29,484 nucleotides of DNA from Clostridiales bacterium (GTDB lineage: Bacteria; Bacillota; Clostridia; Oscillospirales; Feifaniaceae), in assembly GCA_012719075.1 (NCBI GenBank), contig JAAYBB010000067.1, forward strand, positions 1 through 29,484, read 5' to 3'. The position numbers were made by a program, and so were the translations under genes. Numbering within the stretch: position 1 is the first letter of the stretch; every line of letters starts with the position of its first letter. Below the pieces are notes generated by a model. That model did no database searches and was not told the DNA's origin. It saw only the letters and a program-made list of their open reading frames with translations. This document shows, in pieces, positions 1 to 23,020 of the stretch.

Positions 1-603
1 AAAGCCGTCCACCTCGCCGGTCTGCAGGCTCAGCACGCCGTCGATGGGGCTCGAGATCAGCACATACTCGCTGTCGGGCAGGTACTTCTCGGCGTACTCA
101 AACTGCAGCGAGGAGATCTGCACGGCGACCTTTCTGCCGTTGAGCGCCTCAATGGAGTTGATCTCCGCCTCCATGCCCTTGCGGACCAGCGCCCCCTGAT
201 ACCCCTCGTCCAGCGCGTAGGGGCCGGCCATCATGGTGCTCTCGGCCCGCTCGGGCCGGTAGGCCAGCCCCGAGATGCCCACGTCGGCCTGGCCCTGCAC
301 CACCGTCTCGATCACGGTCTCAAAGCTCAGCGGCATGATTTCGAGCTCCACGCCCAGCTGCTCGGCGATGTACTTGCCCAGCGCAATGTCGCAGCCCACA
401 TACTTGTCCTCGCCCTCGCCCGCGTTTAAGTTTTCAAACTCAAAGGGGGCCCACTCGGGGTTGGTGGCCATGACCAGCTTGCCGGTGCCCAGCACCCGCT
501 CCAGCGCGTTTTCGTACACCGTCTCCTTCGGCTGGCAGCCGGCCGAAAACGACAGTGCCAGCGCTGCGGCCAGCCCGGCCGCGATCCTCTTTCTCATGTC
601 CAT
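1..603 (-). CDS. Polar amino-acid ABC transporter substrate-binding lipoprotein (family-3 SBP), C-terminus cut by the window edge
   Basis: Missing from the ORF track because it runs off the window. Reverse-strand translation from ATG 603 is open to base 1 (201 codons): MDMRKRIAAGLAAALALSFSAGCQPKE...GTGKLVMATNPEWAPFEFEN...VGISGLAYRPERAE. It has a signal peptide with a lipobox-like SAGC and typical SBP_bac_3 motifs. RBS GGGAGG lies 8 nt upstream. Confidence 0.85.
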   Translation of the reverse strand, partial: MDMRKRIAAGLAAALALSFSAGCQPKETVYENALERVLGTGKLVMATNPEWAPFEFENLNAGEGEDKYVGCDIALGKYIAEQLGVELEIMPLSFETVIETVVQGQADVGISGLAYRPERAESTMMAGPYALDEGYQGALVRKGMEAEINSIEALNGRKVAVQISSLQFEYAEKYLPDSEYVLISSPIDGVLSLQTGEVDGF

Positions 604-649
604 TTGAAACGCCTCCCGAATCTTTTGTTTTTTGTGTGGCCCGCCGGCC

Positions 650-686
650 AAAATAAAAAAGAGCCCTGTAGTTTCCTACAAGGCTC
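650..686 (-). terminator. Intrinsic terminator inside the 5' leader of the ABC-SBP gene (attenuator terminator)
   Basis: On the minus-strand RNA an 11-bp stem (686-676 pairs with 671-661, one G-U) closes a GAAA tetraloop. It is followed by UUUUUUAUUUU (660-650). It lies 47 nt upstream of the SBP start codon. Confidence 0.8.
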
Positions 687-751
687 CAGTTCACGGTGAT
701 CCTCATAGGCACAAGCACATGTAGCGCCTGTGCCCGGTCGCACACGCGCTT

Positions 752-796
752 CTACCTATGATGGTGGTGCAGGGTAAAGAGGCCGGTTGGCTTCAC
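752..796 (-). CDS. Candidate 14-codon leader peptide (GTG)-KPTGLFTLHHHHR-stop
   Basis: GTG at 796-794 is preceded by GGGAG (810-806, 9-nt spacing). Four consecutive His codons CAC CAC CAT CAT occupy 769-758, then AGG and TAG (754-752). The ORF lies between a promoter and the terminator above, and its 3' end is part of alternative helices (see finding). Confidence 0.5.
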   Translation of the reverse strand: MKPTGLFTLHHHHR

Positions 797-826
797 AGCG
801 GCACGCTCCCGTTGATTGATGTGGCC

Positions 827-854
827 AGTATACCACGGGTTTTTGGCCCTGTAA
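827..854 (-). promoter_or_regulatory. Sigma-A-type promoter for the ABC-SBP leader
   Basis: Minus strand reads TTACAG (854-849), a 16-nt spacer, then TGG-TATACT (extended -10; -10 at 832-827). Confidence 0.6.
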
Positions 855-1546: not shown

Positions 1547-4075
1547 ATGAAACTGCTGGTCTTTGACGGCAACAGCATCCTCAACCGCGCCTATTACGCC
1601 ATCCGGCCCCTGACCAACGCCGAGGGGCTGTACACCCACGGCGTCTACGGCTTTTTGGCCATCTTTTACAAGGAGCTCGAGGCCGAGCGCCCCGACGCCG
1701 TCGCGGTGGCCTTCGACCTGCCCGGCCCCACCTTCCGCCACGAGCGCTTCGAGGCCTACAAGGCCCACCGAAAGGGCATGCCCGAGGAGCTGGCGGTGCA
1801 GCTGCCGGTGCTCAAGGAGGTGCTGGGGGCCATGCGGGTCTGTCAGCTGGAACTGCCGGGCTACGAGGCCGACGACATCATCGGCACGCTGGCCGAGCGC
1901 TGCGACCGCATCGGCGACGACTGCGTCATCGTGACCGGCGACAAGGACGATTTGCAGCTGGTCAGCGACCGCGTCACGGTCAAGCTGGCGGTCACCAAGG
2001 GCGGCGTCAGCCAGAGCCTGCGCTACGACCCCGCGCTGGTGCAGGAGACCTACGGCTTTGAACCGGCGCGCATCGTCGACCTCAAGGCCCTGATGGGCGA
2101 CCCCTCCGACAACATCCCCGGGGTGCCCGGCGTCGGCGAGAAGACGGCGCTGTCGCTGCTGCAGCGCTTTGGCAGCCTCGAGGCCATCTACGGCGGGCTC
2201 GAGACGCTCGACATCCGCGACAGCCTGCGCAAAAAGCTGGCCGAGGGGCGCGAGCTGGCCACCCTCTCGCAGGAGCTGGCCCAAATCCACCGCGAGGTGC
2301 CGGTGCCCATCGACCCGCAGGCGCTGCGGCTGCGGGAACCCGACCAGGAGGCGCTGCTGGCGCTGTTTCGCCAGCTGGAGTTTGCGTCCTTTGCCGCAAG
2401 GCTGCAGGCCCAAGCGCCGCAGGCGCCGGCCGGACAGCCGGCGGCCACGCCGATTGCGGACCTGCCCGCGCTCGAGGCGGCGCTGCGCGACGAGCTCTAT
2501 GTCGCGCCGGGCGAGGCGGGGCTGACCTTTGCCTCGGACGCCGGCCTGTTTGCGCTGGAGCGGGCGGCGCTCGGCCCCGCCTACCCGCAGCTGGCCGCCC
2601 GCCTGCTGGGCGGCGACGAGCCCAAGACGGTCGAGGACGCCAAGTCGGCCATGACGGCGCTGGCCCGCGAGGGCCTGCCGCTGGCGGGCCTGGCCTTTGA
2701 CCCGGCGCTGGCCTCCTATCTGATCAACCCCTCCTCCAAACACACGCTCGAGGCCCTCTGCGCCGCCCACCTCGACCGCGCGCTGCCCGAGGGCGAGGCC
2801 GCCCGCGCGCTGGCGCTGCGCGAGCTGCGCCCGCTGCTGGCCGACCGGCTGGAGCAGGACGGGCTGACCGCGCTGATGCAGCAGGTGGAGCTGCCGCTCT
2901 CGCGGGTGCTCAGCGAGATGGAGCAGCGCGGCTTCTCGGTGGACGAGGCGGCGCTGCGCCGCTTTGGCGAGACCCTCAAGCGCGACATCGCCGAGCTCGA
3001 AGAGAAAATTTACGCCTTTGTCGGGCCCTTTAACCTCAACTCGCCCAAGCAGCTCGGCGAGGTGCTGTTCGAGCGGCTGGGGCTGCCGCCGGCCAAAAAG
3101 ACCAAGACCGGCTACTCGACCGACGCCGAGACGCTCGAGCGCCTGCGCGAGGCACACCCCATGCTGCCGCTGATCCTCGAGTACCGCAAGCTGACCAAGC
3201 TCAACTCCACCTATGTCGACGGCTTTCTCGCGCTGGTGCAGAACGGGCGCATCCACACCACCTTCCACCAGACGCTGACGCTGACCGGCCGCCTCTCGTC
3301 GGCCGAGCCGAACCTGCAGAACATCCCGGTGCGCGAGCCGCTGGGGCGGGAGCTGCGCCGCATGTTCGTGGCCGGCGAGGGCTGCACGCTGATCGACGCC
3401 GACTACAGCCAGATCGAGCTGCGGGTGCTGGCCCACATCGCGCAGGACGAGACCATGACCCAGGCCTTCCGCGCGGGGGCCGACATCCACACGCTCACGG
3501 CCTCGCAGGTCTTCGGCGTCTCGCTGGAGGCCGTGACGCCCGCCATGCGCCGCTCGGCCAAGGCCGTCAACTTCGGCATCGTCTACGGCATTTCGGACTT
3601 TTCGCTGGCCGGCGACATCGGGGTCTCCCGCGCCGAGGCCAGGCGGTATATCGACAGCTACTTCGCCACCTACCCCGGCATCCGCCGCTACCTCGACCGC
3701 GTGGTGCAGGAGGCCAGGGAGCGCGGCTACGTGACCACGCTGCTGGGCCGCCGCCGCTACCTGCCCGAGCTGACGGCCTCCAACTTCAACCAGCGCTCCT
3801 TTGGCGAGCGGGCGGCCATGAACACGCCGATCCAGGGCACCGCGGCCGACATCATCAAGCTGGCCATGGTCCGCGTGAGCCGCCGGCTCGAGCGGGAGGG
3901 CCTGAGGGCCCGGCTGGTGCTGCAGGTCCACGACGAGCTGCTGCTCGAGGCCCCGCTCGACGAGGTCGAGGCCGCCTCCCGCGCCGTGCGCGAGGAGATG
4001 GAGGGGGCCATGACGCTGCTGGTGCCGCTGTCGGTCGACCTGCGCAGCGGAAAGAGCTGGTACGATGCGCATTGA
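1547..4075 (+). CDS. polA: DNA polymerase I
   Basis: 842 aa. The N-terminal 5'-nuclease domain begins MKLLVFDGNSILNRAYYA. Family-A polymerase motifs are present: A DYSQIELRVLAH, B RRSAKAVNFGIVYG, C LQVHDELLLE. RBS AAGGAG lies 7 nt upstream. Confidence 0.97.
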   Translation: MKLLVFDGNSILNRAYYAIRPLTNAEGLYTHGVYGFLAIFYKELEAERPDAVAVAFDLPGPTFRHERFEAYKAHRKGMPEELAVQLPVLKEVLGAMRVCQLELPGYEADDIIGTLAERCDRIGDDCVIVTGDKDDLQLVSDRVTVKLAVTKGGVSQSLRYDPALVQETYGFEPARIVDLKALMGDPSDNIPGVPGVGEKTALSLLQRFGSLEAIYGGLETLDIRDSLRKKLAEGRELATLSQELAQIHREVPVPIDPQALRLREPDQEALLALFRQLEFASFAARLQAQAPQAPAGQPAATPIADLPALEAALRDELYVAPGEAGLTFASDAGLFALERAALGPAYPQLAARLLGGDEPKTVEDAKSAMTALAREGLPLAGLAFDPALASYLINPSSKHTLEALCAAHLDRALPEGEAARALALRELRPLLADRLEQDGLTALMQQVELPLSRVLSEMEQRGFSVDEAALRRFGETLKRDIAELEEKIYAFVGPFNLNSPKQLGEVLFERLGLPPAKKTKTGYSTDAETLERLREAHPMLPLILEYRKLTKLNSTYVDGFLALVQNGRIHTTFHQTLTLTGRLSSAEPNLQNIPVREPLGRELRRMFVAGEGCTLIDADYSQIELRVLAHIAQDETMTQAFRAGADIHTLTASQVFGVSLEAVTPAMRRSAKAVNFGIVYGISDFSLAGDIGVSRAEARRYIDSYFATYPGIRRYLDRVVQEARERGYVTTLLGRRRYLPELTASNFNQRSFGERAAMNTPIQGTAADIIKLAMVRVSRRLEREGLRARLVLQVHDELLLEAPLDEVEAASRAVREEMEGAMTLLVPLSVDLRSGKSWYDAH

Positions 4076-4547
4076 GCCGCTCGCGGCCGACCGGCTCGCG
4101 GCCGTCGCCGCGCTCGAGGCGGCCTGCTTTTCGACCCCCTGGACGCCGGGGCAGCTGGCCGGCGAGCTTGGCGCGCCCGGCGCGCTGTCGCTCTGCCTGC
4201 TCGAGGGGGAGCGGCTGCTGGGCTACGCGCTGCTGCGCTGCGCGGCCGACGAGGCCGAGCTGCTGCGCATCGGCGTCGACCCGTCGCTGCGCGGACGGGG
4301 CCTTGGCGCCGCCCTGCTGCAGGGGGCGCTCGACGCGCTGCGGGCAGCCGGCTGCGGCCGCCTGTTTTTAGAGGTGCGGGCCGGCAACACGGCCGCCCGC
4401 CGGCTCTACGCCGCGGCCGGCTTTTACGAGGTCGGGCGCCGGGCCGGCTACTACGACCGGCCGGTCGAGGACGCGCTGCTGCTGCGGCTGGACCTGGCCG
4501 ATTTTGCGTTGAAAGAGGGACCCCACGTTGAAGATCCTGGCCTTTGA
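4065..4547 (+). CDS. rimI: GNAT N-acetyltransferase, ribosomal-protein-alanine acetyltransferase type
   Basis: 160 aa with the acetyl-CoA motif RGRGLGAALL and ...LEVRAGNTAARRLYAAAGF. It overlaps the polA stop by 11 nt and sits directly before tsaD, as in tsaB-rimI-tsaD operons. Confidence 0.8.
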   Translation: MRIEPLAADRLAAVAALEAACFSTPWTPGQLAGELGAPGALSLCLLEGERLLGYALLRCAADEAELLRIGVDPSLRGRGLGAALLQGALDALRAAGCGRLFLEVRAGNTAARRLYAAAGFYEVGRRAGYYDRPVEDALLLRLDLADFALKEGPHVEDPGL

Positions 4548-5538
4548 GACCTCCTGCGACGAGACCGCCGCCGCCGTGGTGGCGGACGGGCGCCATGTGC
4601 TGTCCTCGGTCGTGCGCACACAAATTGACCTGCACCGCCTCTACGGCGGCGTGGTGCCCGAAATCGCCTCGCGCGCCCACGTGGAGAGCATCTCCCAGCT
4701 GGCGGGCGAGGCCCTTGCGCAGGCCGGCTGCGGCCTGGCCGACCTCGGCGCCGTCGGCGTCACGGCCTGGCCGGGGCTGATCGGCGCGCTGCTGGTGGGG
4801 GTCAACTTCGCCAAGTCGCTGGCGCTGTCGGCCGGGCTGCCGCTGGTGCCGGTGCACCACCTGCGCGGCCACATCGCGGCCTGCCGGCTGGCCGACCCGG
4901 CGCTGGCCCACCCCTTCCTCTGCCTGGTGGTTTCGGGCGGGCACACCAGCCTGGTCTGGGCACAGGACCCCGTTACCTTCCGCACGGTCGGCCGCACGCG
5001 CGACGACGCCGCCGGCGAGTGCCTCGACAAGGTGGCCCGCCTGCTCGGCCTGCCCTACCCCGGCGGCGTGGCGCTGGACCGGCTGGCGCAGCGCGGCGAC
5101 CCCGCGGCCTTTCGCTTTCCGGACGCCGAAGTGCGCGACGCGCCGCTCGACTTCAGCTTCTCGGGCCTCAAGACGGCGGCCATCAACCAGCTGCACCAGC
5201 TGGAGCAGCGGGGGCAGGCCGTGGACCCGGCCGACTTTGCCGCCTCCTTTGTGGAGGCGGTCGCGCAGGCCCTCTGCCGCCGGCTGGAGCTCGCGGCGGC
5301 CGAGACCGGCGCCCCGGTGCTGGCCCTCTGCGGCGGCGTGGCCGCCAACACCGCGCTGCGGCGGCATGCGCAGGCCCTGGCCGACCGCCTTGGCCTGCCG
5401 CTGACCGTGCCGCCCCCCGCGCTGTGCGGCGACAATGCCGCCATGATCGGCGCACAGGCCCACGCCGAGCTGCTGGCCGGCCACACGGCCGGCAGCGACC
5501 TCAACGCGCTGGCCACCCGCAGCCTCGACCAAGGTTGA
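4528..5538 (+). CDS. tsaD: tRNA N6-adenosine threonylcarbamoyltransferase (Kae1/Gcp family)
   Basis: 336 aa starting MKILAFETSCDETAAAVV, with metal-binding HHLRGH and a C-terminal CGDNAAMIG motif. TTG start with RBS GAAAGAGGGA. It overlaps rimI by 20 nt. Confidence 0.95.
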   Translation: MKILAFETSCDETAAAVVADGRHVLSSVVRTQIDLHRLYGGVVPEIASRAHVESISQLAGEALAQAGCGLADLGAVGVTAWPGLIGALLVGVNFAKSLALSAGLPLVPVHHLRGHIAACRLADPALAHPFLCLVVSGGHTSLVWAQDPVTFRTVGRTRDDAAGECLDKVARLLGLPYPGGVALDRLAQRGDPAAFRFPDAEVRDAPLDFSFSGLKTAAINQLHQLEQRGQAVDPADFAASFVEAVAQALCRRLELAAAETGAPVLALCGGVAANTALRRHAQALADRLGLPLTVPPPALCGDNAAMIGAQAHAELLAGHTAGSDLNALATRSLDQG

Positions 5539-5654
5539 ACGCAGGCTGCATAAAGCGCCACGGTTTCACATATTTTTTGCTTTATGCGAATATTTTACTT
5601 ATGTAAACTGCTTGTCCGCCTGTTCTCCGATTCTCCCCGCCTGCGATTTCAAAA

Positions 5655-6987: not shown

Positions 6988-7998
6988 TCAACCCTCGCGG
7001 CCGCCGATGGCGGCCGCAAAGCGCGGGGCCAGGCCCATGCGGTCGGGGCCCAGGTGGATCGGAAACTGGTAGAGCTGGTGGTCGGGAAACTGGTTGCCCT
7101 CGATCAGGATGGGCCCGCGCGCCGTCGTGGCGACGTCCCAGCCCACGTAGCGCAGGCCGCCGGTGCGCAGCGCCGCCGCCTCGACCAGCGCCAGGGCCTC
7201 GGCAAAAAAGGGCAGCTGGGTGCCCTGCAGCGGGTGCCCGGTCAGCGGGTGCACCTCGTGCGCGCGGCCGTTCTTGTCGGCGCCCGGCGTCGAGATGCAG
7301 CCCTGCCCGTCCACCAGCGCGCACATGCCGCCGCTGCCCAGGTTGTCCACCGGCTTTCCGTTGCCGATGCGCAGGCAGCGAAAGACCGTCTGCACCCGCT
7401 CGCCGCTGCGAATCGTGACCAGCCGCAGCGTGTTGACCGAGGCGGGGTGCAGCGCGGCCAGCGCCCCGTGCTGCTCCACCCGCTCCTCCACCAGCACCTG
7501 CCCCTGCTCCAGCAGCGTCTGGCGCAGCAGCTCGGGCTCGGCGCCGGCCGCCTCGTAAAAGGCGATGCCGCGGCCGCAGGTGCCGTTGTAGGGCTTGCCC
7601 ACCAGCTGCGGGTGGGCGGCGCAGAAGTCGGCAAACTCGCCGGCGCCGGCGCTGCGCAGGTCGAGCCAGGCCCGCCCGTGCCAGCCGTCGAAGTGCTGTA
7701 AGAACAGGGCCTTGTCGTCGAGCAGCGGCCAGTCCTCGCGCGGGTTGAGGCTGCGCACATAGGCGTTGTTGACGCCGCGCGTGATGTAGCTGGCCCGCTG
7801 GGCCGGCGACAGCCGGTCGAACTGGAACAGCTGGTAGTCGAGGTAGCCCGACTGGTAGCGCAGCGCGCAGGCGGCCATGTCGGCCGCGACGGCGGCGCGG
7901 CTGCGCCCGCTGCGCCGCGCGACCTCGCCCACGGTCTCGGCCATGCCGCCGTAGTTCATGTTCACGAGCCGTTTGGCCAAAAATGCGAGCCTCGACAC
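6988..7998 (-). CDS. ATP-grasp fold protein (sugar-transfer-associated ATP-grasp, ATPgrasp_ST-like)
   Basis: 336 aa from a GTG start with a GGGGGA RBS. Motifs recalled for this family: VGKPYNGTCGRGI, HPASVNTLRLVTI, VDNLGSGGMCALVD, RYVGWDVATTARGPILIEGN. It starts 32 nt downstream of gpsA, so it is likely co-transcribed. Confidence 0.65.
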   Translation of the reverse strand: MSRLAFLAKRLVNMNYGGMAETVGEVARRSGRSRAAVAADMAACALRYQSGYLDYQLFQFDRLSPAQRASYITRGVNNAYVRSLNPREDWPLLDDKALFLQHFDGWHGRAWLDLRSAGAGEFADFCAAHPQLVGKPYNGTCGRGIAFYEAAGAEPELLRQTLLEQGQVLVEERVEQHGALAALHPASVNTLRLVTIRSGERVQTVFRCLRIGNGKPVDNLGSGGMCALVDGQGCISTPGADKNGRAHEVHPLTGHPLQGTQLPFFAEALALVEAAALRTGGLRYVGWDVATTARGPILIEGNQFPDHQLYQFPIHLGPDRMGLAPRFAAAIGGREG

Positions 7999-8030
7999 GG
8001 TGTCCCCCTTTTCTCTGTGGGCCGGCGGCC

Positions 8031-8990
8031 TTAAAACTCCTGCTTGATCGAGCGCAAAAACAGCCCGGTCAGCACCTGCTTGGGGTCGGCCTGCCGGTAG
8101 ACGATGTCGTAGAGCGCCTGCGAGATGGGCAGCTCCACGCCGTGCGCCTGCGAGAGCGCCAGCATGGCCTTGACGGTGTAGACCCCCTCGGCCAGCCGGT
8201 CGAAGGGCTCGCCTTTGACAAAGCGCTCGCCAAAGGTGCGGTTGTTTGAAAAGGGGGAGAACAGCGTGGCCTCGTAGTCCCCGAGGTGGCAGAGCCCGTA
8301 GGCCGAGCGCTCGCTGCCGCCCATGGCCCCGATCAGCCGCGCCACCTCGCGGGCGCCCCGCGCCATCAGCGGCCCCTTGAGGCTCTCGTAGCCGTAGCCG
8401 TCCAGCATGCCGGCCGCCAGGCCGACGACGTTCTTGGCCGCGGCGCCGATCTCGGTACCGATCAGGTCGGTGCCGATGTACAGCCGGATCAGGTCGCTGG
8501 CAAAGACCTCGACCAGCCGGCGGGTCAGCGCGGGGTCCTGCGAGTCGATGACCATCACGCCGGGGATGCCGGCCGTGTAGCTCTGCACGTGGCCCGGCCC
8601 CACCAGCACCGCCACGCCGACCGGCTGGTCGATGGCCTCCTGCATGACCTGGGACAGGCGCTTGCCGCTCTGCTGCTCCATGCCCTTCATGCAGAGCAGA
8701 AAGGCCTTGCCCGACAGGTCGAAGGTGTTGAGCTGTTCGGCCAGCTGGCGCAGGCCCTGGGCCGAGATCGAGATGACCACGACCTCGCTGTGGGCCAGCG
8801 CCGCCCCGAGGTCGTCGGTGACCGCCACCCCGTCGGGCAGCGTCAGGTAGCGGTTTTTGCGCGTCTGCTGCAGCTTCGCCCGGTCGCGGGAGTCCGGCCG
8901 GCCCCAGAGCAGCACCTCATGCCCGCAGCGGTCGGCGTACCAGGCCTGAAAGGAGCCCCAGCGGCCGCAGCCAAGCACCGTGATCTTCAT
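8031..8990 (-). CDS. gpsA: NAD(P)H-dependent glycerol-3-phosphate dehydrogenase
   Basis: 319 aa with an N-terminal Rossmann motif MKITVLGCGRWGS and a central GTEIGAAAKNVVGLAAGMLDG. The layout is typical of GpsA. Confidence 0.88.
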   Translation of the reverse strand: MKITVLGCGRWGSFQAWYADRCGHEVLLWGRPDSRDRAKLQQTRKNRYLTLPDGVAVTDDLGAALAHSEVVVISISAQGLRQLAEQLNTFDLSGKAFLLCMKGMEQQSGKRLSQVMQEAIDQPVGVAVLVGPGHVQSYTAGIPGVMVIDSQDPALTRRLVEVFASDLIRLYIGTDLIGTEIGAAAKNVVGLAAGMLDGYGYESLKGPLMARGAREVARLIGAMGGSERSAYGLCHLGDYEATLFSPFSNNRTFGERFVKGEPFDRLAEGVYTVKAMLALSQAHGVELPISQALYDIVYRQADPKQVLTGLFLRSIKQEF

Positions 8991-9064
8991 GTGCCGTCTC
9001 CTCCAAAGTAGGTTGTGTTGGCGCCCATGCCCCTATGCATGCCGCCGGCGGCTTGTCCATGCTG

Positions 9065-9093
9065 ATTTTAGCACAAACGGCGCCGCCCGCCAA
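9065..9093 (-). promoter_or_regulatory. Sigma-A-type promoter for gpsA
   Basis: Minus strand reads TTGGCG (9093-9088), a 17-nt spacer, then TGC-TAAAAT (-10 at 9070-9065). Confidence 0.5.
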
Positions 9094-9472
9094 GCCAAAG
9101 CGCGGCCGCGGGGATAAAAAGGGGCGCCGGGGCACCCCTTGTGGGGCAAAAAGGGGCGGTTTTTCCCGCGGCGGGCGGGACGGGTGGCCCCGCAAGGCCG
9201 CCCTGCCATGAACAAGGCCCAAAGGGACGGGGTGGGGTGCGCGGGTCGCCCTGCCGAAAAAGGGCTGTCGCCTCCCGGTCGATGGGGCGGCCGCCTGCCG
9301 GCCCTGCCTGTCAAAAAGGGCCGTTTTATCCCACGGGTGGGGAAAGTGGCCTCAATGCCAGCTTCACAATGACAGCGGTGCGGCAGCTGACGCAGCTCAA
9401 CGCCAAGTGCGGTACAGGCAAGCCCACCGACTGTTAAAACGGGCTTTCTCCCCAGGCAGGTCGCCCCGCCCG

Positions 9473-9500
9473 TCAAAAAAGGGGCGCCAAAGCGCCCCTT
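9473..9500 (-). terminator. Intrinsic terminator after secG
   Basis: Minus-strand RNA reads AAGGGGCGC-UUUG-GCGCCCCUU followed by UUUUGAC, 20 nt after the secG stop. Confidence 0.8.
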
Positions 9501-9519
9501 GATGGTCTGTCTGTTTGGC

Positions 9520-9768
9520 CTAGCCCCTGACCGACAGGTTGATTAGCACGCCCATCACGACGGTGGCCAGCACAAAGGCGATGCCGAGAAAGACGGTGCC
9601 CTTGCGCAGCTTGGCCTGCGGCGTGGAGCTCTCGTGCCGGCTGAAAAAGGAATCGGCCCCACCTGAGATGGCGCCGAGACCCCGCTCGTTGCCCTCCTGC
9701 AGCATCACGACCACCACCAGCGCGATGGCCAAAATCATCTGAACTCCAATGGCGATCTTCAGGGCCAT
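9520..9768 (-). CDS. secG: Preprotein translocase subunit SecG
   Basis: 82 aa from ATG 9768 with RBS GGAGGGGAG (the ORF track extends to 9795). Two TM helices flank the SecG signature MLQEGNERGLGAISGGADSFF. Confidence 0.85.
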   Translation of the reverse strand: MALKIAIGVQMILAIALVVVVMLQEGNERGLGAISGGADSFFSRHESSTPQAKLRKGTVFLGIAFVLATVVMGVLINLSVRG

Positions 9769-9960
9769 GTCCTTCTCCCCTCCGCCCGCAGCCACTGCCG
9801 CGGGGGCGCCGTTCTTGCGGCGGACGGCGCGCCGAATTTTGTCTCATTAAGTCCCGGCAGCCGCCGGGGCGCCCTCTTTGGGCTTGTATGTGATCGGCGC
9901 AAGGGCCTCCCGCGTCTGCGCGCAATGTCCTGCACGCCTGTACGCAATAAAGTGCAAATG

Positions 9961-9989
9961 ATATTATAGCACAAGTTTTCGCCCATTTC
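9961..9989 (-). promoter_or_regulatory. Near-consensus sigma-A promoter upstream of secG
   Basis: Minus strand reads TTGAAA (9989-9984), a 17-nt spacer, then TGC-TATAAT (-10 at 9966-9961). Confidence 0.7.
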
Positions 9990-10168
9990 AAGCCGGCGGT
10001 GCAATTTTACAGCGCGATCCGGTCCGGCCGGGTTCATGCGGGTTCAGGTCGGCCCCCCGGTTTGGCGCCCTTCAACCCGGCCCCTTTGGGGTCGGCGTGG
10101 TCCGCACGGGCGGCCCGGCCCGGGCAGCGCGGCCCCGTTCAGGCCGGCCCGGCTCAGGTCGGCCCGGC

Positions 10169-12700
<2,532 letters not shown>

Positions 12701-13008
12701 ACGTCCTCCTTGATGGTCGGGCAACCGGTGCTGACTTATTTGTCGGTCTTTTAAAACCGCGGCCTGCGGCCCGCAGGGGAAAGGTCGTGCTTTTGAGCGG
12801 CAAAAGCACCAAAACCGCATCCTTTTGCGGCGGGCAAAAGGATGCAAAAGCCCCCGGGGGCGTTGCGAGGCCCCCGGACCCCCGGCGCCTCTAAAGTACG
12901 CCCGGCCCCCGAATCATAATCAAGGGGCCAAGCCTGCAATAAAGGCGCATGAAACGTTCAGGTGCCGATTGCACAAGCAAAGCGGTTGGGGGCCGGTCGC
13001 CAGCGTCA

Positions 13009-13079
13009 GAGGAACACTCGAAAAATCAGGACTCGCACCCTGCGGGTGCTCAGACAGCTGATTTTTCCACGCGTTCCTC
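13009..13079. other. 71-nt three-tier extended hairpin in the gyrB-gyrA spacer
   Basis: GAGGAAC (13009-15) pairs with GTTCCTC (13073-79). GAAAAATCAG (13020-29) pairs with CTGATTTTTC (13058-67). GCACCC (13035-40) pairs with GGGTGC (13044-49). That is 23 bp in total. The transcribed strand is unknown. Confidence 0.5.
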
Positions 13080-13214
13080 CCATCCGATACGCTCCGCGTC
13101 TGAGCGTGGGGCCCTGTGGAATATCGTCAAAATGAGCAGGCTTATTTTGCTGTGTCGGCGGGGGATTGCCTTTTATAAAGCCGGTTTTATTTTAAGACTC
13201 CGCCCCTCCCGGGG

Positions 13215-15290
<2,076 letters not shown>

Positions 15291-15316
15291 TCATCACGGC
15301 GGAGCCCACGGGGGGC

Positions 15317-15574
15317 TCAGGCCATGTCGTTCTCCATTCTGCGGCGCAGCGTCGCCGTGGCGATCTGGCCGATGTACACCCGCAGCACGCCCTGCTCCTG
15401 CGTGAGCACAAAGCTGCGGGGCAGCTCGCTCGTGAGCGTGGTCACGCGGCTCTCGCGCTCGGCCCGGGCCAGAAAGTCGCGGGTGCTGCGCTCCACCGTC
15501 GTGGTCTCGATGTCGAAGATGCCGATGACGTCCCGCTTGCGCACCAGCACGTCCTGCCCCAGGTGCAAATACAT
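15317..15574 (-). CDS. remB: DUF370 protein (RemB/YaaB-like), in the conserved slot between recF and gyrB
   Basis: 85 aa starting MYLHLGQDVLVRKRDVIGIFDIE. Size and position match Bacillus yaaB/remB. Confidence 0.75.
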   Translation of the reverse strand: MYLHLGQDVLVRKRDVIGIFDIETTTVERSTRDFLARAERESRVTTLTSELPRSFVLTQEQGVLRVYIGQIATATLRRRMENDMA

Positions 15575-15591
15575 GGGCGTTCCCCTCTCTG

Positions 15592-16695
15592 TTATGAAAG
15601 CGCCGTGATCTCCCCCTGCTCGAGCCGGAAGACCGCGGCGGTCTTCGAGGGCCTGGGCAGCGCGCAGGTCGTAATCAGCGTCTGCCGCTCCCGCAGCCGG
15701 CTGCGGACATACTGCTGGCGGCTGCGGTCCAGCTCGCTGAACACGTCGTCGAGCAGCAGGATCGGGGGCTCCCCCACCGTCTCCTCAACCAGCGCGCACT
15801 CGCCGAGCTTGAGCGAGAGCGCCACGCTGCGCTGCTGCCCCTGCGAGCCGAACAGCCGGGCCGAGCGCCCGTCGATCAGCAGCTCGACGTCGTCGCGGTG
15901 GGGACCCACCAGTGAGACGCTGCGGGCGGTCTCGAGCGGCAGCGCGTCCCAGAGTTCCCGCTCCAGCGCGTCCTTGATCTGCCCGAGGTCTTCCATCTGC
16001 CCGGCCTCCGGCCGGCCGCAGAAGGTCTGGTACTCGAGCGAGAGCGATTCGGCCCCCTTCGAGAGCCTTTCGTGGTGCAGCCCGCTCTGGACCGAGAGCT
16101 TCTGCACATAGCTGAATCGCATGAAGCTCAGGTAGCTGCCCAGGGCGGCCAGCCGCTCGTTCCAGATACCGAGCTGCTCCTGCGCGCCGCCCTGCCGCAG
16201 CAGCATGTTCTTTTGCGCCACCACGCGGCCGTAGTCCTCGAGCACGTTTTGGTATTTGGGCCGCAGCTGCCCGATCGCGGTGTCCAGAAAGCGGCGGCGC
16301 TCCTCGGGGCCCTCCTTGACCAGGTTCAGGTGCCCCGGCTCGAACAGCACGGTGCAAAAGCGCGTGGCCAGCTCGCCGTTGCGGCGGATGGGCTGCCCGT
16401 TGAGCAGGATCTCCTTGCGGGCGCCCCCCTCGGCCACGCGCAGCTCGAGGCTCTCGTCGCCGCGGCGGGTCTCAAACTGGAGCTGCACCCGCGCGGCCGG
16501 GGCGCCAAAGCGCACCCAGTCCCGCTCGCGGCCCTGCCGAAAGCTCCTGGCGCAGCAGAGGATGTACACGGCCTCGAGCAGGCTGGTCTTGCCCTGCGCG
16601 TTTTTGCCGCAGATCAGGTTGACTCCGGGCCCCGGCCGAAAGACCTGGTGCTCAAAGTTTCGAAAGTTGTGCAGCGTCAGTTCCGTTATGCGCAC
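15592..16695 (-). CDS. recF: DNA replication and repair protein RecF
   Basis: Walker [17 protein letters not shown]-like signature [15 protein letters not shown], Walker [14 protein letters not shown] prefer the GTG 16695 start (GGAGG, 5-nt spacing); ATG 16707 and 16716 are alternatives. Confidence 0.95.
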
Positions 16696-16969
16696 CTTGG
16701 CCTCCATCCGCGGCAATCACGCGCAGGCGGGCCTGCCCGGGCAGCTCGACCGTCATGCCGGGCAGGATCTTCCTGCCCCGCATCTGGCAGACCTCCCCCT
16801 CTACGCGCACGGCGCCCGACAGGATCAGCGCCTTGGCCTCGCCGCCGGTCATGCACAGCCCGGCCAGCTTGAGCAGGCTGTCCAGCTTGATGTGGGGCGT
16901 GCGGATTTCGACCGGCTGAAGTTCGGTCTGCTTTGGCCTTGCCCGCACCCGCCTGATGGCTTTTTTCAT
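16652..16969 (-). CDS. yaaA: S4-domain RNA-binding protein (YaaA-like)
   Basis: 105 aa containing [50 protein letters not shown]. It occupies the conserved dnaN-yaaA-recF position. Confidence 0.8.
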
Positions 16970-16994
16970 GTGTCGGCCCCCCGCCTCTGCCGCC

Positions 16995-18098
16995 TCATTC
17001 GCTCTTGAGCCGCACCGGCAGCACCAGATAGGTAAAGGCCTCCCCCTCGACGGGCCGGATGACCATCGGCGAGAGGTTGTTCGCGAGCTCCAATTTGACC
17101 TCGCTCTGTCCGCAGTTTTTAAAGGCCTCCTGCAAAAAGCGGTTGTTGAAGCCGATTTCCACGGTGCCGCCCTCGCAGGAGATGGGCAGCTTGTCGGTCA
17201 CCCGCCCCAGCGGCGTGGAGCAGGAGAAGGCGGCCTCCCGGTCGCGAAAGACGATGCGCACCGGGCTGCGCTGCCGCTCCGAAATCAGCAGCGAGGCGCG
17301 CTCGAGGCAGTCCAGAAAGCCCTTGACCTCAACGCGGCACGAAATGGGTCCATCGGCCGGGATCGAAGAGCGGTAGTTTAAAAACTCCCCCTCGATCGTG
17401 CGGGTCACCACCGAGATGTTCTCGGTCTCAAACAGCACGCTGCGCTCCCCGACAAAGACCGACACCGGCAGCTCGCTCTCGCCCAGGATGCGCGAGATGT
17501 CCTGCAGCGTCCGGCCCGGCACCACAAAGCGGGCCTCGGCCTCGGAGCCCTCGAGCTTTTCCCTGCGCAACGCCAGACGGTAGCCGTCCACCCCCACCAC
17601 CTCAATTTGCCCACTTTCGAGGTGAAACAGACATCCGGTGTGCACCGGCTTGCTGTCGCTCTGCGAGACCGCAAAGACGGTCTGCAGGATCAGCGAGCGC
17701 AGCAGCTTCTGCTGCAGCTCCACCTGGAGACCGGACCTTGAAAAGTCCACCTGCGGAAAGCCTTCGGCCGAGAGCCCGAGGATGACAAACTCGGCCTCGC
17801 CCGACGAGATGCGCACCCGCTCCTCGGCCACCTCGATCCGGACGGTGCCCTCGGGCAGCTTGCGCAGGATGTCCCCAAGCGTGGAGCAGGGCAGCAGGAT
17901 GTCCCCGTCGGAAAGGCCGGCCACCGACAGCAGGCAGCGGATGCCGGTCTCGCCGTCGTAGCCGGTCAGGCTGAGCTGGTCCCCCCGCAGCGAGAGCAGC
18001 AGCCCCTCGAGCACGGGGTTCGAGGAGCGGGGCAGCACGGCGTGGCCGGCCGTGGCCACCGCCTCGGCCAGAACGGCCCGTTCGCAGGAAAACTTCAT
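16995..18098 (-). CDS. dnaN: DNA polymerase III beta sliding clamp
   Basis: 367 aa from ATG 18098 with a GGGAGG RBS, starting [14 protein letters not shown]. It has a three-domain clamp layout and lies directly downstream of dnaA. Confidence 0.95.
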
Positions 18099-18428
18099 CA
18101 AAGACGACCTCCCTGTACAGGGTGTCTTCCCCATCCGTTCGGGGAAGCTCCCCTTTTCTTTTTCGAGAGAAGAGCATAGGAGAAAAGATAGTAGTAGTAG
18201 TAGGGGCTGTGGAGGGCGTGGAAAACCGGCAAGTCCCTGCGGCAGCAGTGAGAGCGGCGACGGCGGTCAGGGCTTGCCTGTTGAAAGCCTGTGGAGAAAA
18301 AACTGGAAGTTGTGCAAACGAAAAAATGCTGTGGACAGCGGGCGGTGGAGGGCGGGGAACTCTGTGGAAAAGAGGGGATAAAAACCCCCCGCCAACGGTG
18401 CCGGCGGCGGGCCCCTCCCCCGGTCCCT
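18099..18428. other. oriC: Chromosomal replication origin (oriC) in the dnaA-dnaN spacer
   Basis: Same-orientation DnaA boxes on the plus strand: TGTGGAGGG 18208-16, CGTGGAAAA 18217-25, TGTGGAGAA 18290-98, TGTGGACAG 18330-38, TGTGGAAAA 18363-71. Beside them are a GGGC cluster (18204-07), (TAG)5 (18189-18203) and an AT-rich tract (about 18154-18188). Confidence 0.8.
18189..18203 (+). repeat. DnaA-trio-like array, TAG x5
   Basis: Plus strand reads TAGTAGTAGTAGTAG, which is 3'-GAT-5' repeated. It is separated from the nearest DnaA box only by GGGC. Confidence 0.7.
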
Positions 18429-19766
18429 TTACCCCTGCCGGATGTTGCCGATGATCTCGTCGATGTCGCCGCGCAGGTCGCTCTGCTCCTCAATTTCGCG
18501 CTCGATCTTCAAAATGGAGTGGCGCACGGTCGTGTGGTCCTTGCCGCCGAACAGGTCGCCGATCTGCTTGAGGGACATGCTGGTGATCTCGCGCAGGATG
18601 TACATGCAGACCTGGCGGGCCTGGATGAAGTCGGCGTTGCGGCGGTTGCCCTTGATGTCCTCGACCGAGACCGAAAAGTAGGCCGAGGTCTCGATGAAGG
18701 CCCGGTCGATGAGCAGCGGCAGCGAGATGTTGTCGCTGAGCACGCCGGCGATGGCGGCCTCGGCCGTCTCGATGTTGATTTCGCGGTGGTCGAGCAGCAC
18801 CAGCGCCTTGATCTTCTTGACCGTGCCCTCGAGCTGGCGAATGTCCTTCTTGAGGCGGCCGGCGATGTAATCGGCGACCTCGGGCGTCATGGCGACCCCG
18901 AGGTCCCGAGACTTGCGGTTGAGGATGGCGGTGCGGGTCTCGATGTCGGGGGCCTGGATGTCGGCGATCAGGCCCCACTCAAAGCGGGTGCGCTGCCGGT
19001 CCTCCAGCGTCTTGATCTCCTTGGGCGGCCGGTCGGAGGTCAGCACGATCTGCTTGTTGGCCTCGTACAGCGTGTTGAAGGTGTGGAAGAACTCCTCCTG
19101 CGTCGACTCCTTGCCGCCGATGAACTGGATGTCGTCGATCAGCAGCACGTCGAGAAAGCGGTACTTCTCGCGAAAGGCCCGCATGGCCGACTGGCCCATG
19201 CCCAGCGAGTCCACCATCTCGTTGGTGAAGTCGTCGCCCTTGATGTAGTGCACCTTGAGCGTGGTCTTGCCAAAGCGCTGCAGCTCGTTTCGGATGGCGT
19301 AGAGCAGGTGGGTCTTGCCAAGGCCCGAGCCGCCGTAGATGAACAGCGGGTTGAAGCTGTCCCCGAGGTGCTTGGTGATGGACTTGCAGGCCGCGTGGGC
19401 AAACTTGTTGGAGTTGCCGACGATGAAGTTCGAGAAGGTGTAGTCGTTTTGCCCCGGCGACTCGGTGGCGTCCTGGTCCTCGATCTCGCGGCTGACCCGC
19501 ATTTCGGCCCTGGCGCGCTCCTCGGCGCTCAGCAGCTCCAGCTTGACCTCAAAGCCCAGCAGCGCCTCGAGGAAGAAGGCGATCTTCTCGGCGAAGTCGG
19601 TCGAGATGACATCGCGCTGGAAGTCGGAGGGGATCAGCAGCTTGACCACATTCCCGTCCAGCGCCAGCGGCCTGACCCCGGTCATCCAGGTCTCGACCAG
19701 CGAAGGCGAGTAGGCGCCCTCCAGTTTTTGAATGATGTGCGCCCAAACGTCACCAATGGAATTCAT
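18429..19766 (-). CDS. dnaA: Chromosomal replication initiator DnaA
   Basis: 445 aa from ATG 19766. AAA+ Walker A GGSGLGKTHLL and a C-terminal DNA-binding signature LKQIGDLFGGKDHTTVRHSILKIE. Confidence 0.98.
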   Translation of the reverse strand: MNSIGDVWAHIIQKLEGAYSPSLVETWMTGVRPLALDGNVVKLLIPSDFQRDVISTDFAEKIAFFLEALLGFEVKLELLSAEERARAEMRVSREIEDQDATESPGQNDYTFSNFIVGNSNKFAHAACKSITKHLGDSFNPLFIYGGSGLGKTHLLYAIRNELQRFGKTTLKVHYIKGDDFTNEMVDSLGMGQSAMRAFREKYRFLDVLLIDDIQFIGGKESTQEEFFHTFNTLYEANKQIVLTSDRPPKEIKTLEDRQRTRFEWGLIADIQAPDIETRTAILNRKSRDLGVAMTPEVADYIAGRLKKDIRQLEGTVKKIKALVLLDHREINIETAEAAIAGVLSDNISLPLLIDRAFIETSAYFSVSVEDIKGNRRNADFIQARQVCMYILREITSMSLKQIGDLFGGKDHTTVRHSILKIEREIEEQSDLRGDIDEIIGNIRQG

Positions 19767-19888
19767 TAAGACACCCCACACAGGCTCTTTGCGGTGATCG
19801 GGGATGGCAGAGAACCTCTTCTATAATTTTAAAATATTATTATAAAAACTTTTTAAATATTTTATATATTTTTTAGTCGGTATGCTCT

Positions 19889-20106: not shown

Positions 20107-21930
20107 TCAGCGGCCGCCGCGGCCGCCGCCGCCCGAAAATCCGCCGCCTCCGCCGCCCGAGAAGCCGCCGCCCCCGCCCGAGAAGGAGCTGCTGGTCTGC
20201 TGCGCGGCCTGTACGCCGCGGCGGCTGGCCTGCGACATGCGGCTGGCCGAGTAGATCATGCCGTAGGGCACAAACACCGGGCGGCCGGTGCCCGAGGCGG
20301 TGTGCGGCTGCTCAAAGTAGCCGGGATAGAGGTCCTTGAACTCCTTGGCCACCTGCTCGGCAATGCCGAACAGCACGGCAAAGACCAGATAGTCGTCCCA
20401 GAGGTCCACCTCGACGGCGCGGCGCTCGTTGATGATCGTGAAGTCCTTGAGGTACTTCCAAAAGCCGATGGTGTCCACGGCGCGGCCAAAGCCCTGCTCG
20501 GTGAAGACCTCGGGCGGGCTGAGCGGGATGAAGCCAAGCAGCGTGCGCGAGGGGCCCGGGGCGAGGTCGCCGGCCGCCCGCAGCGCGCGCCGTCCGGCCT
20601 CGGCGGCCGAGGTCTCCCAGCCGGTGATGCGGCTGTGGTTGCGCTGGCTCCAGCGCTGCAGCTCCTTTTCTTCGAGCACCCGGTTGCTGCCGGCGGCCGA
20701 GAGCAGCATGTTGTAGAGCTCCAGCTCCAGGGCCGGCAGGTCGGGCTGCCGGTCGGGGAAGAGGACGACCGAAGAGGAGTCCCGCCCGAACAGGCCCCGG
20801 CGCTCGCGCTCCTCCACCTGCAGGTGGCCCTGCATGGACCAGCGCAGCAGATAGCAGCCCAGCAGCGAGGTCTCGGAGGGCAGGCGCCCCACCTTTTTGA
20901 GCGTGTAGTAGGTCGCCAGCAGGTCGCCGCCAAAGGGCAGGTCCCGGCTGTAGTCGGCCTTGGACAGCGAGGGCAGCGACTGCCGCCCGCCGCCGTCGGT
21001 GGGCAGCGTCCGGGCGCTGCGCAGCAGCGAGGCGACGGCAAAGCCGGTGATGGCCACCACCAGGATGGGGAAGAGGCCGAAGGCGGCAAAGCGCCAGGGC
21101 GAGCGCGAGGGCGCGGGGTAGCTAGTGCCCGGATGCACGGGCGGCTTGGCGCCGCCGTAGTCGTCGTCGCGGTCGCCGTAGTCGCTGCCCTCAAGCGCGC
21201 GGTTGACCAAATCGTCCACCGAGCGGTCGTAGACCACGGCGGGCGAGAAGAGGTCGGGCACAAAGCGGCAGAGCACGATCATGCTGTCGCTGCTGCTAAA
21301 GGCGGCGGTGGTGCCGGCGAAAATGCGGCCGTCGGTCGTGAAGAACAGCTCGCTGACGCTGTTGCCAAAGCCCCAGATGTCGGCGTTGCCGTCCTCGAGC
21401 GGCACCCCCTCGTACCCGATCAGCACCGAGGCCTCGCGCAGCGGGTCCCCGGCCGAGATGAACATGTGGTTGAAGCCGGCGCCGTCCTGGTAGCCCTTGA
21501 CCAGGTTGCGCAGCGTGTAGCGGATGGTGTAGGTGTGGGTGCCGAACTCGACGCCCCAGCAGATCTCGTAGCCCTCGGAGGTCGTGGCAATGCCGCAGCG
21601 GAACTCCTTTTCGGCGCGCGAGGCGTTGACGTTCCACGCGTCCAGCGTCTCGTACTGGCGGCCCAGCTCGTCGTGCACCGTCAGGCTGTCGACCGAGGCG
21701 TCGGTCAGGTTGTACAGGGCAAAGCACCACTCGGTCACGTCCGAGACGTTCCGAAGGCTCCAGACCTCGGTGATCACGGCGTCGCCGTTTGACTGCAGAT
21801 CCACCGTGATCTGGATCGAATCGGTCTCGCCGGCGGCCAGCGCGGGCGTGAACAGCGCCAGTGCGAGCAGCAGCGCGAGCAGCGCCGCCGCCGGCCTTGC
21901 GAAGGCTCCGGACAGCGTTGTGCGTTTCAT
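20107..21930 (-). CDS. DUF2207-family membrane protein with a Gly-rich C-terminal tail
   Basis: 607 aa with a signal peptide, an extracellular N-domain, central TM helices and a C-terminal SSSFSGGGGGFSGGGGGGFSGGGGRGGR. It has the classic pairing with an upstream lemA. Confidence 0.8.
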   Translation of the reverse strand: MKRTTLSGAFARPAAALLALLLALALFTPALAAGETDSIQITVDLQSNGDAVITEVWSLRNVSDVTEWCFALYNLTDASVDSLTVHDELGRQYETLDAWNVNASRAEKEFRCGIATTSEGYEICWGVEFGTHTYTIRYTLRNLVKGYQDGAGFNHMFISAGDPLREASVLIGYEGVPLEDGNADIWGFGNSVSELFFTTDGRIFAGTTAAFSSSDSMIVLCRFVPDLFSPAVVYDRSVDDLVNRALEGSDYGDRDDDYGGAKPPVHPGTSYPAPSRSPWRFAAFGLFPILVVAITGFAVASLLRSARTLPTDGGGRQSLPSLSKADYSRDLPFGGDLLATYYTLKKVGRLPSETSLLGCYLLRWSMQGHLQVEERERRGLFGRDSSSVVLFPDRQPDLPALELELYNMLLSAAGSNRVLEEKELQRWSQRNHSRITGWETSAAEAGRRALRAAGDLAPGPSRTLLGFIPLSPPEVFTEQGFGRAVDTIGFWKYLKDFTIINERRAVEVDLWDDYLVFAVLFGIAEQVAKEFKDLYPGYFEQPHTASGTGRPVFVPYGMIYSASRMSQASRRGVQAAQQTSSSFSGGGGGFSGGGGGGFSGGGGRGGR

Positions 21931-22513: not shown

Positions 22514-22974
22514 GGGTGGAACCCCTCCTTTTTTGATTGGCAGACGTTTATGGTTGAGGAACTTTTGTTGATGAACTTTTTTGGGCAGGATGGCTGTGGA
22601 CAAAAATGCCGCCCCCGCGGGCGGCCCCCCGGGTTGGGGGAAGGGAACAGCGCAGGTGTGGTGCGGGGAGGACGCGCGGGGCAGTGCGAAGGGCGCACAG
22701 GAAACAGCGCGCGGTGCCGTGTGTTGGGGAGGCGGGGGATGGCGCGGGCAGGACGCGGCGTACCGTGCAGAAGAAACGGAAGTGGGTACGGGTGTGGCAC
22801 AGGGGGCACAGCGGGTTGCCGAGACACTACAAAGTGCAATTTTTAAACGAGAGATTACAAACTGTTGTTGGCTTTGGCCCGCGGCAGACGGCGCCCCGCA
22901 GGGCGCCTGGGCCGGCGGCGGCCGGTCGTGAGAGCCAAAACCCTCCTGGCGCAGCAGGGCCGCCCACACCTTGT

Positions 22975-23003
22975 AGTATACCACAAAAGCGGAGAATTGT
23001 ATA
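22975..23003 (-). promoter_or_regulatory. Candidate promoter far upstream of lemA
   Basis: Minus strand reads TATACA (23003-22998), a 17-nt spacer, then TGG-TATACT (-10 at 22980-22975). It would give a leader of about 455 nt. Confidence 0.4.
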
Positions 23004-23020
23004 GGGAAAAAACAAGGGGG

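Follow-up and report, generated by a model that had tools for sequence, protein, structure and literature searches.

A probable histidine-responsive leader-peptide attenuator upstream of a polar amino-acid ABC-transporter operon in an uncultured Clostridiales bacterium

In hisL of Escherichia coli and Salmonella (Rfam family RF00514), a short leader open reading frame (ORF) with tandem His codons is followed by overlapping RNA segments that pair according to the position of the ribosome. A ribosome at the stop codon gives another set of helices than a stalled one, and the output is an intrinsic terminator. A like arrangement is predicted for the leader described here, which lies on the minus strand of contig JAAYBB010000067.1 (assembly GCA_012719075.1, Clostridiales bacterium), a stretch of 29,484 nt that is called the window below. 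It precedes a gene for a substrate-binding protein (SBP) of the SBP_bac_3 family. With good confidence the element can be regarded as a histidine-responsive, ribosome-mediated leader-peptide transcription attenuator, and it most likely controls a polar amino-acid ATP-binding cassette (ABC) transporter operon with histidine as its presumed substrate. As in hisL, a shortage of charged tRNA-His is expected to raise expression. The two leaders differ in that no sequence or structure similarity between them is detectable and in that the host of the present one belongs to a Gram-positive Clostridia lineage. Their targets differ as well: hisL controls hisGDCBHAFI, whereas the leader in the window heads an ABC-transporter SBP operon and its homologues stand before such operons, hisS or hisZ.

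Attenuators of this kind have been predicted within the same phylum. Ashniev et al. 2022 (PMC9413887) reported that RF00514 gives no matches in Firmicutes and predicted His leader attenuators in 17 Firmicutes genomes, belonging to the Bacillus cereus group, to Peptostreptococcaceae together with Lutispora, and to Erysipelotrichales. The targets in their table are his biosynthesis operons only. The authors proposed that the attenuators replaced the regulator HisR in lineages without HisR; their tables give HisR as the regulator in cultured Oscillospiraceae and Ruminococcaceae, and none of the 17 genomes is from Oscillospiraceae (PMC9413887). The initial annotation of the window, made from its letters alone, had called a ribosome-mediated His attenuator unusual for Firmicutes; given the 17 genomes this was overstated, while it holds that none of them comes from the lineage considered here. 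The published attenuators share with the present leader the phylum, the predicted mechanism and a row of 3-5 tandem His codons before the attenuator, antiterminator and terminator hairpins. They differ in their targets, which here are a transporter, hisS and hisZ, and in layout, since here the first helix takes in His codons and the element is more compact. The stems of Peptostreptococcaceae and Lutispora have CAUAGGUAC... / ...GCUAUGAUGGG in common with it (CAUAG(G/A)NAC ... CUAUGA type), a likeness that follows largely from the His codons. An nhmmer profile built from the window leader and its homologues (nine sequences, see below) gave no plus-strand match with E < 1 against the published sequences of Lutispora, Terrisporobacter, Acetoanaerobium, C. 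difficile and Intestinibacter. These sequences were taken from the PDF text of Additional file 6, those of C. difficile and Intestinibacter being incomplete, and of the three published alignments the comparison covered that of Peptostreptococcaceae and Lutispora. A leucine-rich leader-peptide attenuator is reported for the ilv-leu operon of another Firmicute, Staphylococcus aureus (Kaiser et al. 2018, PMC5794164); it differs from the present leader in its amino acid, in an unrelated RNA and in its biosynthetic operon target.

Other described means of histidine control include the His T-box and HisR. His T-box leaders of Lactobacillales and some Clostridia stand before the same set of genes (hisXYZ, hisS and his operons), have a terminator/antiterminator output, and respond ultimately to tRNA-His charging. 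They differ in sensing uncharged tRNA directly by a conserved specifier loop and T-box sequence, for which a leader of about 170 nt is too short. HisR, of the TrpR family, has a 20-bp operator before hisXYZ and his operons of Clostridia and controls the same transporter family, but through a protein-bound DNA site and not an RNA switch.

Searches for all of these were negative. No family reached its gathering threshold when the window and seven homologous loci were searched against Rfam 15, an outcome in favour of the initial annotation; neither His_leader (RF00514) nor T-box (RF00230) matched there, nor did either match positions 500-1600 at E <= 10. They are excluded as families, not as analogies. 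The Rfam matches in the leader region at E <= 10 were all at chance level, and the best was the trpB motif (RF04312) at 652-734 on the minus strand, which covers a hairpin and the terminator of the leader (the B:C hairpin of the following paragraphs); with 23.7 bits against a gathering threshold of 59 and E = 1.1 it was judged to reflect no more than two hairpins that look alike by chance. No HisR operator (20 bp with a CTTTA-N6-TAAAG core) was found in 600-900, even with 3 mismatches, and the exact core is absent from every leader-bearing locus; one related locus without the leader (L025) alone has it. HutP, the antitermination regulator of the Bacillus hut operon, induces in response to histidine, and the logic expected of it is opposite to that of this leader; a HutP-type site TAG-N4-TAG-N4-TAG occurs nowhere in the window, even with 1 mismatch. 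Judged by its sequence, the leader constitutes a new, lineage-specific RNA family of an already predicted kind, absent from Rfam.

The leader begins with a sigma-70-type promoter, which a promoter scan placed at 855-827 on the minus strand, the strand on which all elements of the leader lie (-35 TTTACA at 855-850, a 17-nt spacer, extended -10 TGgTATACT at 835-827). It has 10 of 12 consensus matches plus the TG of the extended -10, and TTTACA-17-TATACT recurs at equal distance in homologous loci. Transcription is expected to start near 822-819, and the leader transcript, ORF included, is about 170 nt long. The Shine-Dalgarno sequence GGGAG (810-806) lies 9 nt 5' of a GTG codon (796-794), with which a leader-peptide ORF opens at 796-752. 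It consists of GTG, 13 codons and TAG, encodes (M)KPTGLFTLHHHHR, and ends LHHHHR-stop after 14 codons. The four tandem His codons CAC CAC CAT CAT at 769-758 are the proposed regulatory codons. They are the only run of at least four His codons in a scan of all six frames of the window, in which mononucleotide shuffles lead one to expect 0.045 such runs. A chance origin is excluded because the run is conserved in nine distinct homologous leaders.

The regulated gene (1..617, minus strand; ribosome-binding site GGGAGG at 617-612, ATG at 603-601) encodes the binding protein of a polar amino-acid ABC transporter, with a lipoprotein signal ending ...LSFSAGC. It runs off the start of the window, 201 residues being present, and matches SBP_bac_3 (Pfam PF00497) with E = 8.5e-18. 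The full-length protein P0001 (276 aa) is 100% identical to the fragment in the best local alignment, and in homologues permease and ATPase genes follow 3' of the SBP gene. Histidine is presumed to be the substrate on the grounds of the regulation, the SBP sequence itself not identifying one.

Between the ORF and the gene the leader contains a series of short segments with competing partners. Segment 0, UCAUAGGUA (761-753), spans the end of the ORF, from the last His codon through Arg into the stop codon, and in the minimum free energy (MFE) fold its partner is UGCCUAUGA (711-703), with CAUAGG (760-755) facing CCUAUG (709-704). The helix belongs to the RNAalifold consensus of the nine sequences (columns 59-66 with 108-115) and is kept in 8-9 of them. 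When free of the ribosome, segment 0 is proposed to sequester the 5' strand of the antiterminator. Segment A, GCGCGUGUGC (749-740), lies 2 nt beyond the stop codon; its partner is segment B, GGGCACAGGCGC (735-724), in which GCACAGGCGC (733-724) matches A at 9 of 10 positions around a central G-G mismatch. Segment C, GUGCUUGUGCC (718-708), competes for B in the B:C hairpin (734-724 with 718-708) and takes the two C residues that open the antiterminator strand; in four homologues this hairpin extends to 15 bp and covers all of CCUAUG. The 5' strand of the proposed antiterminator, CCUAUGAGG (709-701), can pair with segment 0 or, through 7 Watson-Crick and 2 G-U pairs, with the 3' strand CCUUGUAGG (683-675), which shares bases with the terminator's 5' arm. 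The intrinsic terminator itself, found by a terminator scan at 687-650, has a GC-rich stem of 12 bp (687-676 with 671-660), the twelfth pair being a terminal G-U; GAAA forms the loop, and the U-tract follows at 659-650.

The calculated helix energies are -18.4 kcal/mol for A:B, -20.5 kcal/mol for B:C, -10.0 kcal/mol for the 9-bp antiterminator (-12.7 kcal/mol including its inner hairpin) and -20.3 kcal/mol for the terminator. In its MFE fold the naked leader forms a single long hairpin (761-703) beside the terminator, with -77.3 kcal/mol and z = -5.1; 0 of 200 shuffles fold as well. All elements named in the initial annotation are present on the minus strand within one base of where it had put them. 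The Shine-Dalgarno sequence, the GTG-initiated ORF and the His codons were read off directly, its helix for CAUAGG with CCUAUG is real, and its pairing of 709-701 with 683-675 has the 7 Watson-Crick and 2 G-U pairs stated there. A few details needed amendment: the promoter, given there as TTACAG with a 16-nt spacer, is the same site with a better -35 one base over; the helix between 749-740 and 733-724 exists, with the G-G mismatch left unmentioned; the terminator was stated as 11 bp with the correct loop and U-tract. Of the three-helix switch outlined there, helices 1:2 and 3:4 correspond to the RNAalifold state, and the additional B:C hairpin had been overlooked.

Relatives of the leader were sought by a protein-database search with the 201-aa SBP fragment, followed by fetching the contigs of relatives, and by scanning genomes of GTDB species with a DNA pattern derived from the leader core. 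Nine distinct leaders were obtained: that of the window, L001 (with L019), L005 (with L006), L007 (with L017), L010 (with L011, L012 and L014), L013, L015, L016 and L018. They include six GTDB species and originate from metagenome-assembled genomes of uncultured gut Clostridia/Oscillospiraceae, one carrier being Candidatus Galloscillospira excrementipullorum. A protein-pattern scan of genome contigs with the 201-aa fragment found no relative. A metagenome scan with a variant pattern (…CCTATGAGH) returned L020 alone, which was rejected as a chance GC hairpin with no leader. A search of the window and of all fetched loci with the nhmmer profile of the nine leaders gave no further copy of the element.

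The small ORF and its His run, whose conservation the initial annotation had proposed as a check, are present in all nine leaders. Each has an SD-like purine run 4-10 nt 5' of an ATG or GTG start codon and a reading frame open for 13-17 codons, in which three or four tandem His codons precede a final Arg (in L015, Arg-His). Segment A begins 0-3 nt after the stop codon, and the first His codon is 16-20 nt upstream of the segment, again in 9 of 9. The homologous peptides are MIRMLANCKLNLHHHR, MIFNKLFNLHHHR, MRSYLPALQLNLHHHR, MLQYLSVSKLNLHHHR, MRLFLLNNKLHHHR, MTGILYTGIHHHRH, MMLLYLPVFKLNLHHHR and MMTVILATIQKLHHHR, each ending at a stop codon. Common to all is L/I-HHH(H)-R alone; the N-terminus is unconserved. 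Mean pairwise nucleotide identity is 0.32 in the N-terminal part of the ORF, 0.87 in the core (from the His run to CCUAUGAG), 0.30 in the spacer before the terminator and 0.71 in the terminator. In the upstream His codons the third positions change between C and U only, and His is kept even where a potential pair with GAGGAUG is broken. An unconserved N-terminus combined with a kept frame and kept His codons is what one expects where an ORF is translated for regulation, i.e., of a leader peptide. The ORF is predicted to be translated, and the ribosome to stall on the His codons.

Within the core, segments A, B and CCUAUGAG are invariant in the nine sequences, and every base that never varies belongs to a segment with a choice of two or three partners: B or C for A, A or C for B, B or A for C, and for CCUAUGAGG either 761-753, the first bases of B, or the terminator 5' arm at 683-675. 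From one sequence to the next the hairpin loops are nearly always different. The RNAalifold consensus represents the terminated state, in which CAUAGGUA pairs with UGCCUAUG and encloses A:B, together with the terminator. Five pairs of the terminator show compensatory double changes among the homologues. The sequence GUAG of the terminator region is invariant in 9 of 9 leaders. Three of them have it in the stem, five have half of it in the loop, and in L015 it is loop throughout; its retention even in a loop fits pairing with CUAU of the antiterminator better than it fits the terminator.

The genes that follow the leader point to histidine. In L015 the leader (region 7533-8000), with peptide MTGILYTGIHHHRH, precedes a hisZ-like gene of which the first 77 residues are seen. 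This gene matches TIGR00443 (hisZ) with E = 1.1e-10 against 0.0025 for hisS, and also Pfam tRNA-synt_His; a homologue search with the 77-aa fragment gave no matches. The L015 leader and gene diverge from a pstSCAB operon, and only the first 230 nt of the gene fall within the locus. In L005/L006 the leader heads SBP, permease and ATPase genes, followed 67 nt on by hisS (3026-4252 in L006; TIGR00442, 289.4 bits against a cut-off of 286.75). The gap between ATPase and hisS in L006 holds no plus-strand terminator and no T-box, so that histidyl-tRNA synthetase would also fall under the His leader. In L018 the leader precedes an SBP of a second clade, 33% identical to the window SBP and a member of a very large Firmicutes family. 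The same leader before two SBP clades, an hisS operon and an hisZ-like gene marks a histidine regulon, in agreement with the histidine-related role that had been proposed from the window alone. The operon of L001-L004 has the SBP (4001-4828) and permease (4943-5599) genes but no ATPase gene, the next gene being a convergent glutamate dehydrogenase; this transporter must borrow an ATPase from elsewhere or be incomplete.

A relative of the L018 SBP (65% identity), in L025, has no leader. In its place is a perfect HisR-type palindrome, gaCTTTAGCATGGTAAAGcg (CTTTA-N6-TAAAG, 2434-2449), 50-65 nt 5' of the SBP gene (2501-3364) of an SBP-permease-ATPase-M20 peptidase operon. This motif class is listed for hisXYZ of Faecalibacterium, Oscillibacter and Flavonifractor (PMC9413887). 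From these sequences, leader attenuator and HisR operator look like alternative controls of one transporter family, and the HisR box on a related transporter fits the proposal of Ashniev et al. that attenuators replaced HisR. An equation of the L018-type SBP with hisX of Clostridium symbiosum was dropped, that genome being without hisXYZ in the tables of the same authors (PMC9413887). More distant SBP paralogues (39-46% identity, in M20 peptidase operons; L008, L009 and L021-L024) carry no His leader, nor any His run within a credible ORF. The sequence CACCATCAT upstream of L008 was considered and rejected, as an in-frame stop precedes it and there is no terminator. AT-rich palindromes such as TATGCATTATAATGCATA occur upstream of some of these distant genes (L021 680-720, L022 2940-2985, L023 2800-2830) and, by their sequence, look like operator sites of some repressor.

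The manner in which the segments could act is set out here as a model of the order of helix folding. With the ribosome absent or released, segment 0 would pair with CCUAUGA alongside A:B, or the long 761-703 hairpin would form; the antiterminator strand would be locked, the terminator (687-660) would form, and transcription would end. When His-tRNA is scarce, the ribosome would halt with an early His codon in the A site and cover segment 0 but not A, so that A:B would hold B. The free CCUAUGAGG (709-701) could then pair with the emerging CCUUGUAGG (683-675), the terminator would be blocked, and the transporter would be transcribed. When His-tRNA is plentiful, the ribosome would reach the stop codon, 2 nt before A, and melt A:B. 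B:C would form and take the first bases of the antiterminator strand (the whole CCUAUG in four homologues), and the terminator would win. It is probably B:C that distinguishes a His-stalled ribosome from one at the stop codon. The identity of the individual elements is solid, and the exact read-out of the ribosome position is the part that this model supplies.

The switch was examined by folding the window transcript up to the terminator loop with the ribosome footprint masked. Transcripts ending before the 3' arm were used because the terminator invariably prevails at equilibrium once the full leader is folded. With no ribosome, the long hairpin 761-703 formed and the antiterminator strand was buried. 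With the A site on His1-His3, A:B (or A:C) and the full 9-bp antiterminator were obtained. With the A site on His4 an extended B:C appeared and the antiterminator was absent from the minimum-energy fold; with the A site on Arg or the stop codon, B:C and a 7-bp remnant (-3.8 kcal/mol) were left. The same trend as in the window was seen in L005, L013, L015 and L018, so that at equilibrium the antiterminator is predicted in 5 of 9 leaders. If A:B is imposed, as in sequential 5'-to-3' folding, the antiterminator forms in 8 of 9 sequences.

Several observations weigh against a histidine-responsive attenuator. With His codons masked and the transcript ending before the 3' arm, the antiterminator is not the most stable structure in L001, L007, L010 and L016. 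In the last three the 15-bp B:C that covers CCUAUG is 5-8 kcal/mol more stable, and the model needs the first-formed A:B to persist kinetically; in L001 no antiterminator forms even with A:B imposed, C pairing with the spacer. Folding of the full leader with footprints gives the terminator a probability of ~0.97 or more at equilibrium, in which classical attenuators are alike. Helix 0 with the antiterminator strand, A:B, B:C and the antiterminator are invariant, and covariation is neutral on them: it cannot test the core helices because the core bases never vary. Of the compensatory changes that the initial annotation had suggested looking for, those in the five terminator pairs exist, and the core helices provide no such information. 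Transcription outruns translation in Bacillus subtilis, and coupling of ribosome and RNA polymerase (RNAP) in Firmicutes is for this reason not to be taken for granted. There are three or four His codons here against seven in the E. coli hisL. The window SBP has family matches that are weak and generic as to substrate, the best in NCBIfam being weak ones to Lys/Arg/Orn, cystine and Gln binders. Finally, every carrier of the leader is an uncultured organism.

Three other explanations were considered, which even jointly are unlikely. The core of about 60 nt (CAUAGGUA..AGCGCGUGUGC..GGCACAGGCGCU..GCUUGUGCCUAUGAG) might be a sensor of its own, riboswitch-like or binding a protein or tRNA, with histidine, uncharged tRNA-His or a regulatory protein as the signal and an incidental or auxiliary ORF. 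Such a sensor could account for a core that is 87% identical between flanks of 30-32%, in hosts with SBPs just 33-73% identical, for proposed helices without covariation support, and for a ribosome-dependent switch that equilibrium folding does not reproduce in 4 of 9 homologues. The pattern of conservation, however, makes it improbable. Invariant stems with free loops (GACCGG, GUGG, AAAG, GUAG, UUAG, GUCAG; UACAU, UAAAC, UAUUC and others) are the opposite of a ligand-binding aptamer, and core invariance is explained without a ligand pocket because each invariant base has two or three alternative partners. The SD, start codon, open frame and His run are kept in 9 of 9 leaders despite the unconserved upstream ORF sequence, which would be needless if the ORF were untranslated, and the region has neither an Rfam family, T-box included, nor a HutP-type site UAG-N4-UAG-N4-UAG. 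There is likewise only a slim chance that the core is a second sensor (of histidine, uncharged tRNA-His or a protein) atop the leader peptide, forming a dual-input attenuator, and an equally slim one that in an uncultured lineage of Oscillospiraceae such a device replaced HisR at the genes of uptake, tRNA charging and biosynthesis. The multiple partners of the invariant bases and the variable loops make a dual input unnecessary.

A translation-dependent attenuator that is not specific for histidine could respond to translation capacity, to ribosome availability, or to a slow step at Arg (AGG/AGA) or the stop codon, the His codons being kept mainly since CAUCAUAGG must pair with CCUAUGAGG. The last His codon and the Arg and stop codons do lie inside segment 0 and are constrained by structure alone, AGG and AGA are often rare codons, and in four homologues the predicted antiterminator pairs rise only with a footprint at the stop codon (+15 setting). 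Yet the upstream His codons stay His through C/U changes that break the GAGGAUG pairing, the extra codon of the window is a fourth His and no other, and the gene contexts are histidine-related (a hisZ-like gene, hisS, and a transporter family with a HisR box elsewhere); a non-specific sensor is as improbable as a core that senses by itself. Least probable of all is a constitutive 5' untranslated region with a leaky terminator, or a remnant, in which the His run has no function. The terminator is always thermodynamically preferred, as this would predict, but in nine distinct lineages purifying selection has kept the ORF, the His run, the core and the terminator beside sequence that is only ~30% identical, the element is tied to three classes of histidine-related gene, and a four-His run has the low chance expectation per window given above. 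Ribosome-mediated attenuation in response to histidine is preferred to all three.

Other features of the window were recorded. The leader promoter and polA, which diverges from it, are separated by an apparently non-coding spacer of ~690 nt (860-1546), which is very GC-rich, up to 83% at 1001-1200; the ORFs in it are GC-driven and spurious. It contains no Rfam match above chance and no notable repeats. In homologous loci the spacer on the polA side differs in sequence and length, and in L007 an acetyltransferase gene lies inside it. The minus strand of 8031-19781 is the neighbourhood of a chromosomal origin, with dnaA (19781-18429), dnaN (18134-16995), gyrB (15278-13215), gyrA (12847-10169) and gpsA (8990-8031). 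Judged from the gene neighbourhood, oriC is probably just upstream of dnaA, at ~19.8-20.1 kb. A 531-aa protein encoded on the minus strand at 21968-23563 has a LemA domain confined to its last 145 residues and a long N-terminal part without assignment; its gene adjoins that of a DUF2207 membrane protein (20107-21930).

The leader does not challenge current understanding. It provides a well-defined RNA family outside Rfam and lengthens the short list of leader-peptide attenuators beyond Proteobacteria. Predicted histidine attenuation in Firmicutes would be extended by it from biosynthesis operons to an uptake system and hisS. The compact five-segment design, with His codons in the first helix and a stop codon abutting segment A, would make it a handy model or synthetic-biology part, and the element bears on whether ribosome-RNAP coupling in Clostridia suffices for leader-peptide attenuation. 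For an uncharacterised SBP_bac_3 clade of abundant uncultured gut Oscillospiraceae, histidine is the predicted substrate. A single transporter family appears to have come under HisR, through its DNA operator, in one lineage and under a leader-peptide RNA switch in a second, a case of regulator turnover that bears on the rewiring of amino-acid regulons.

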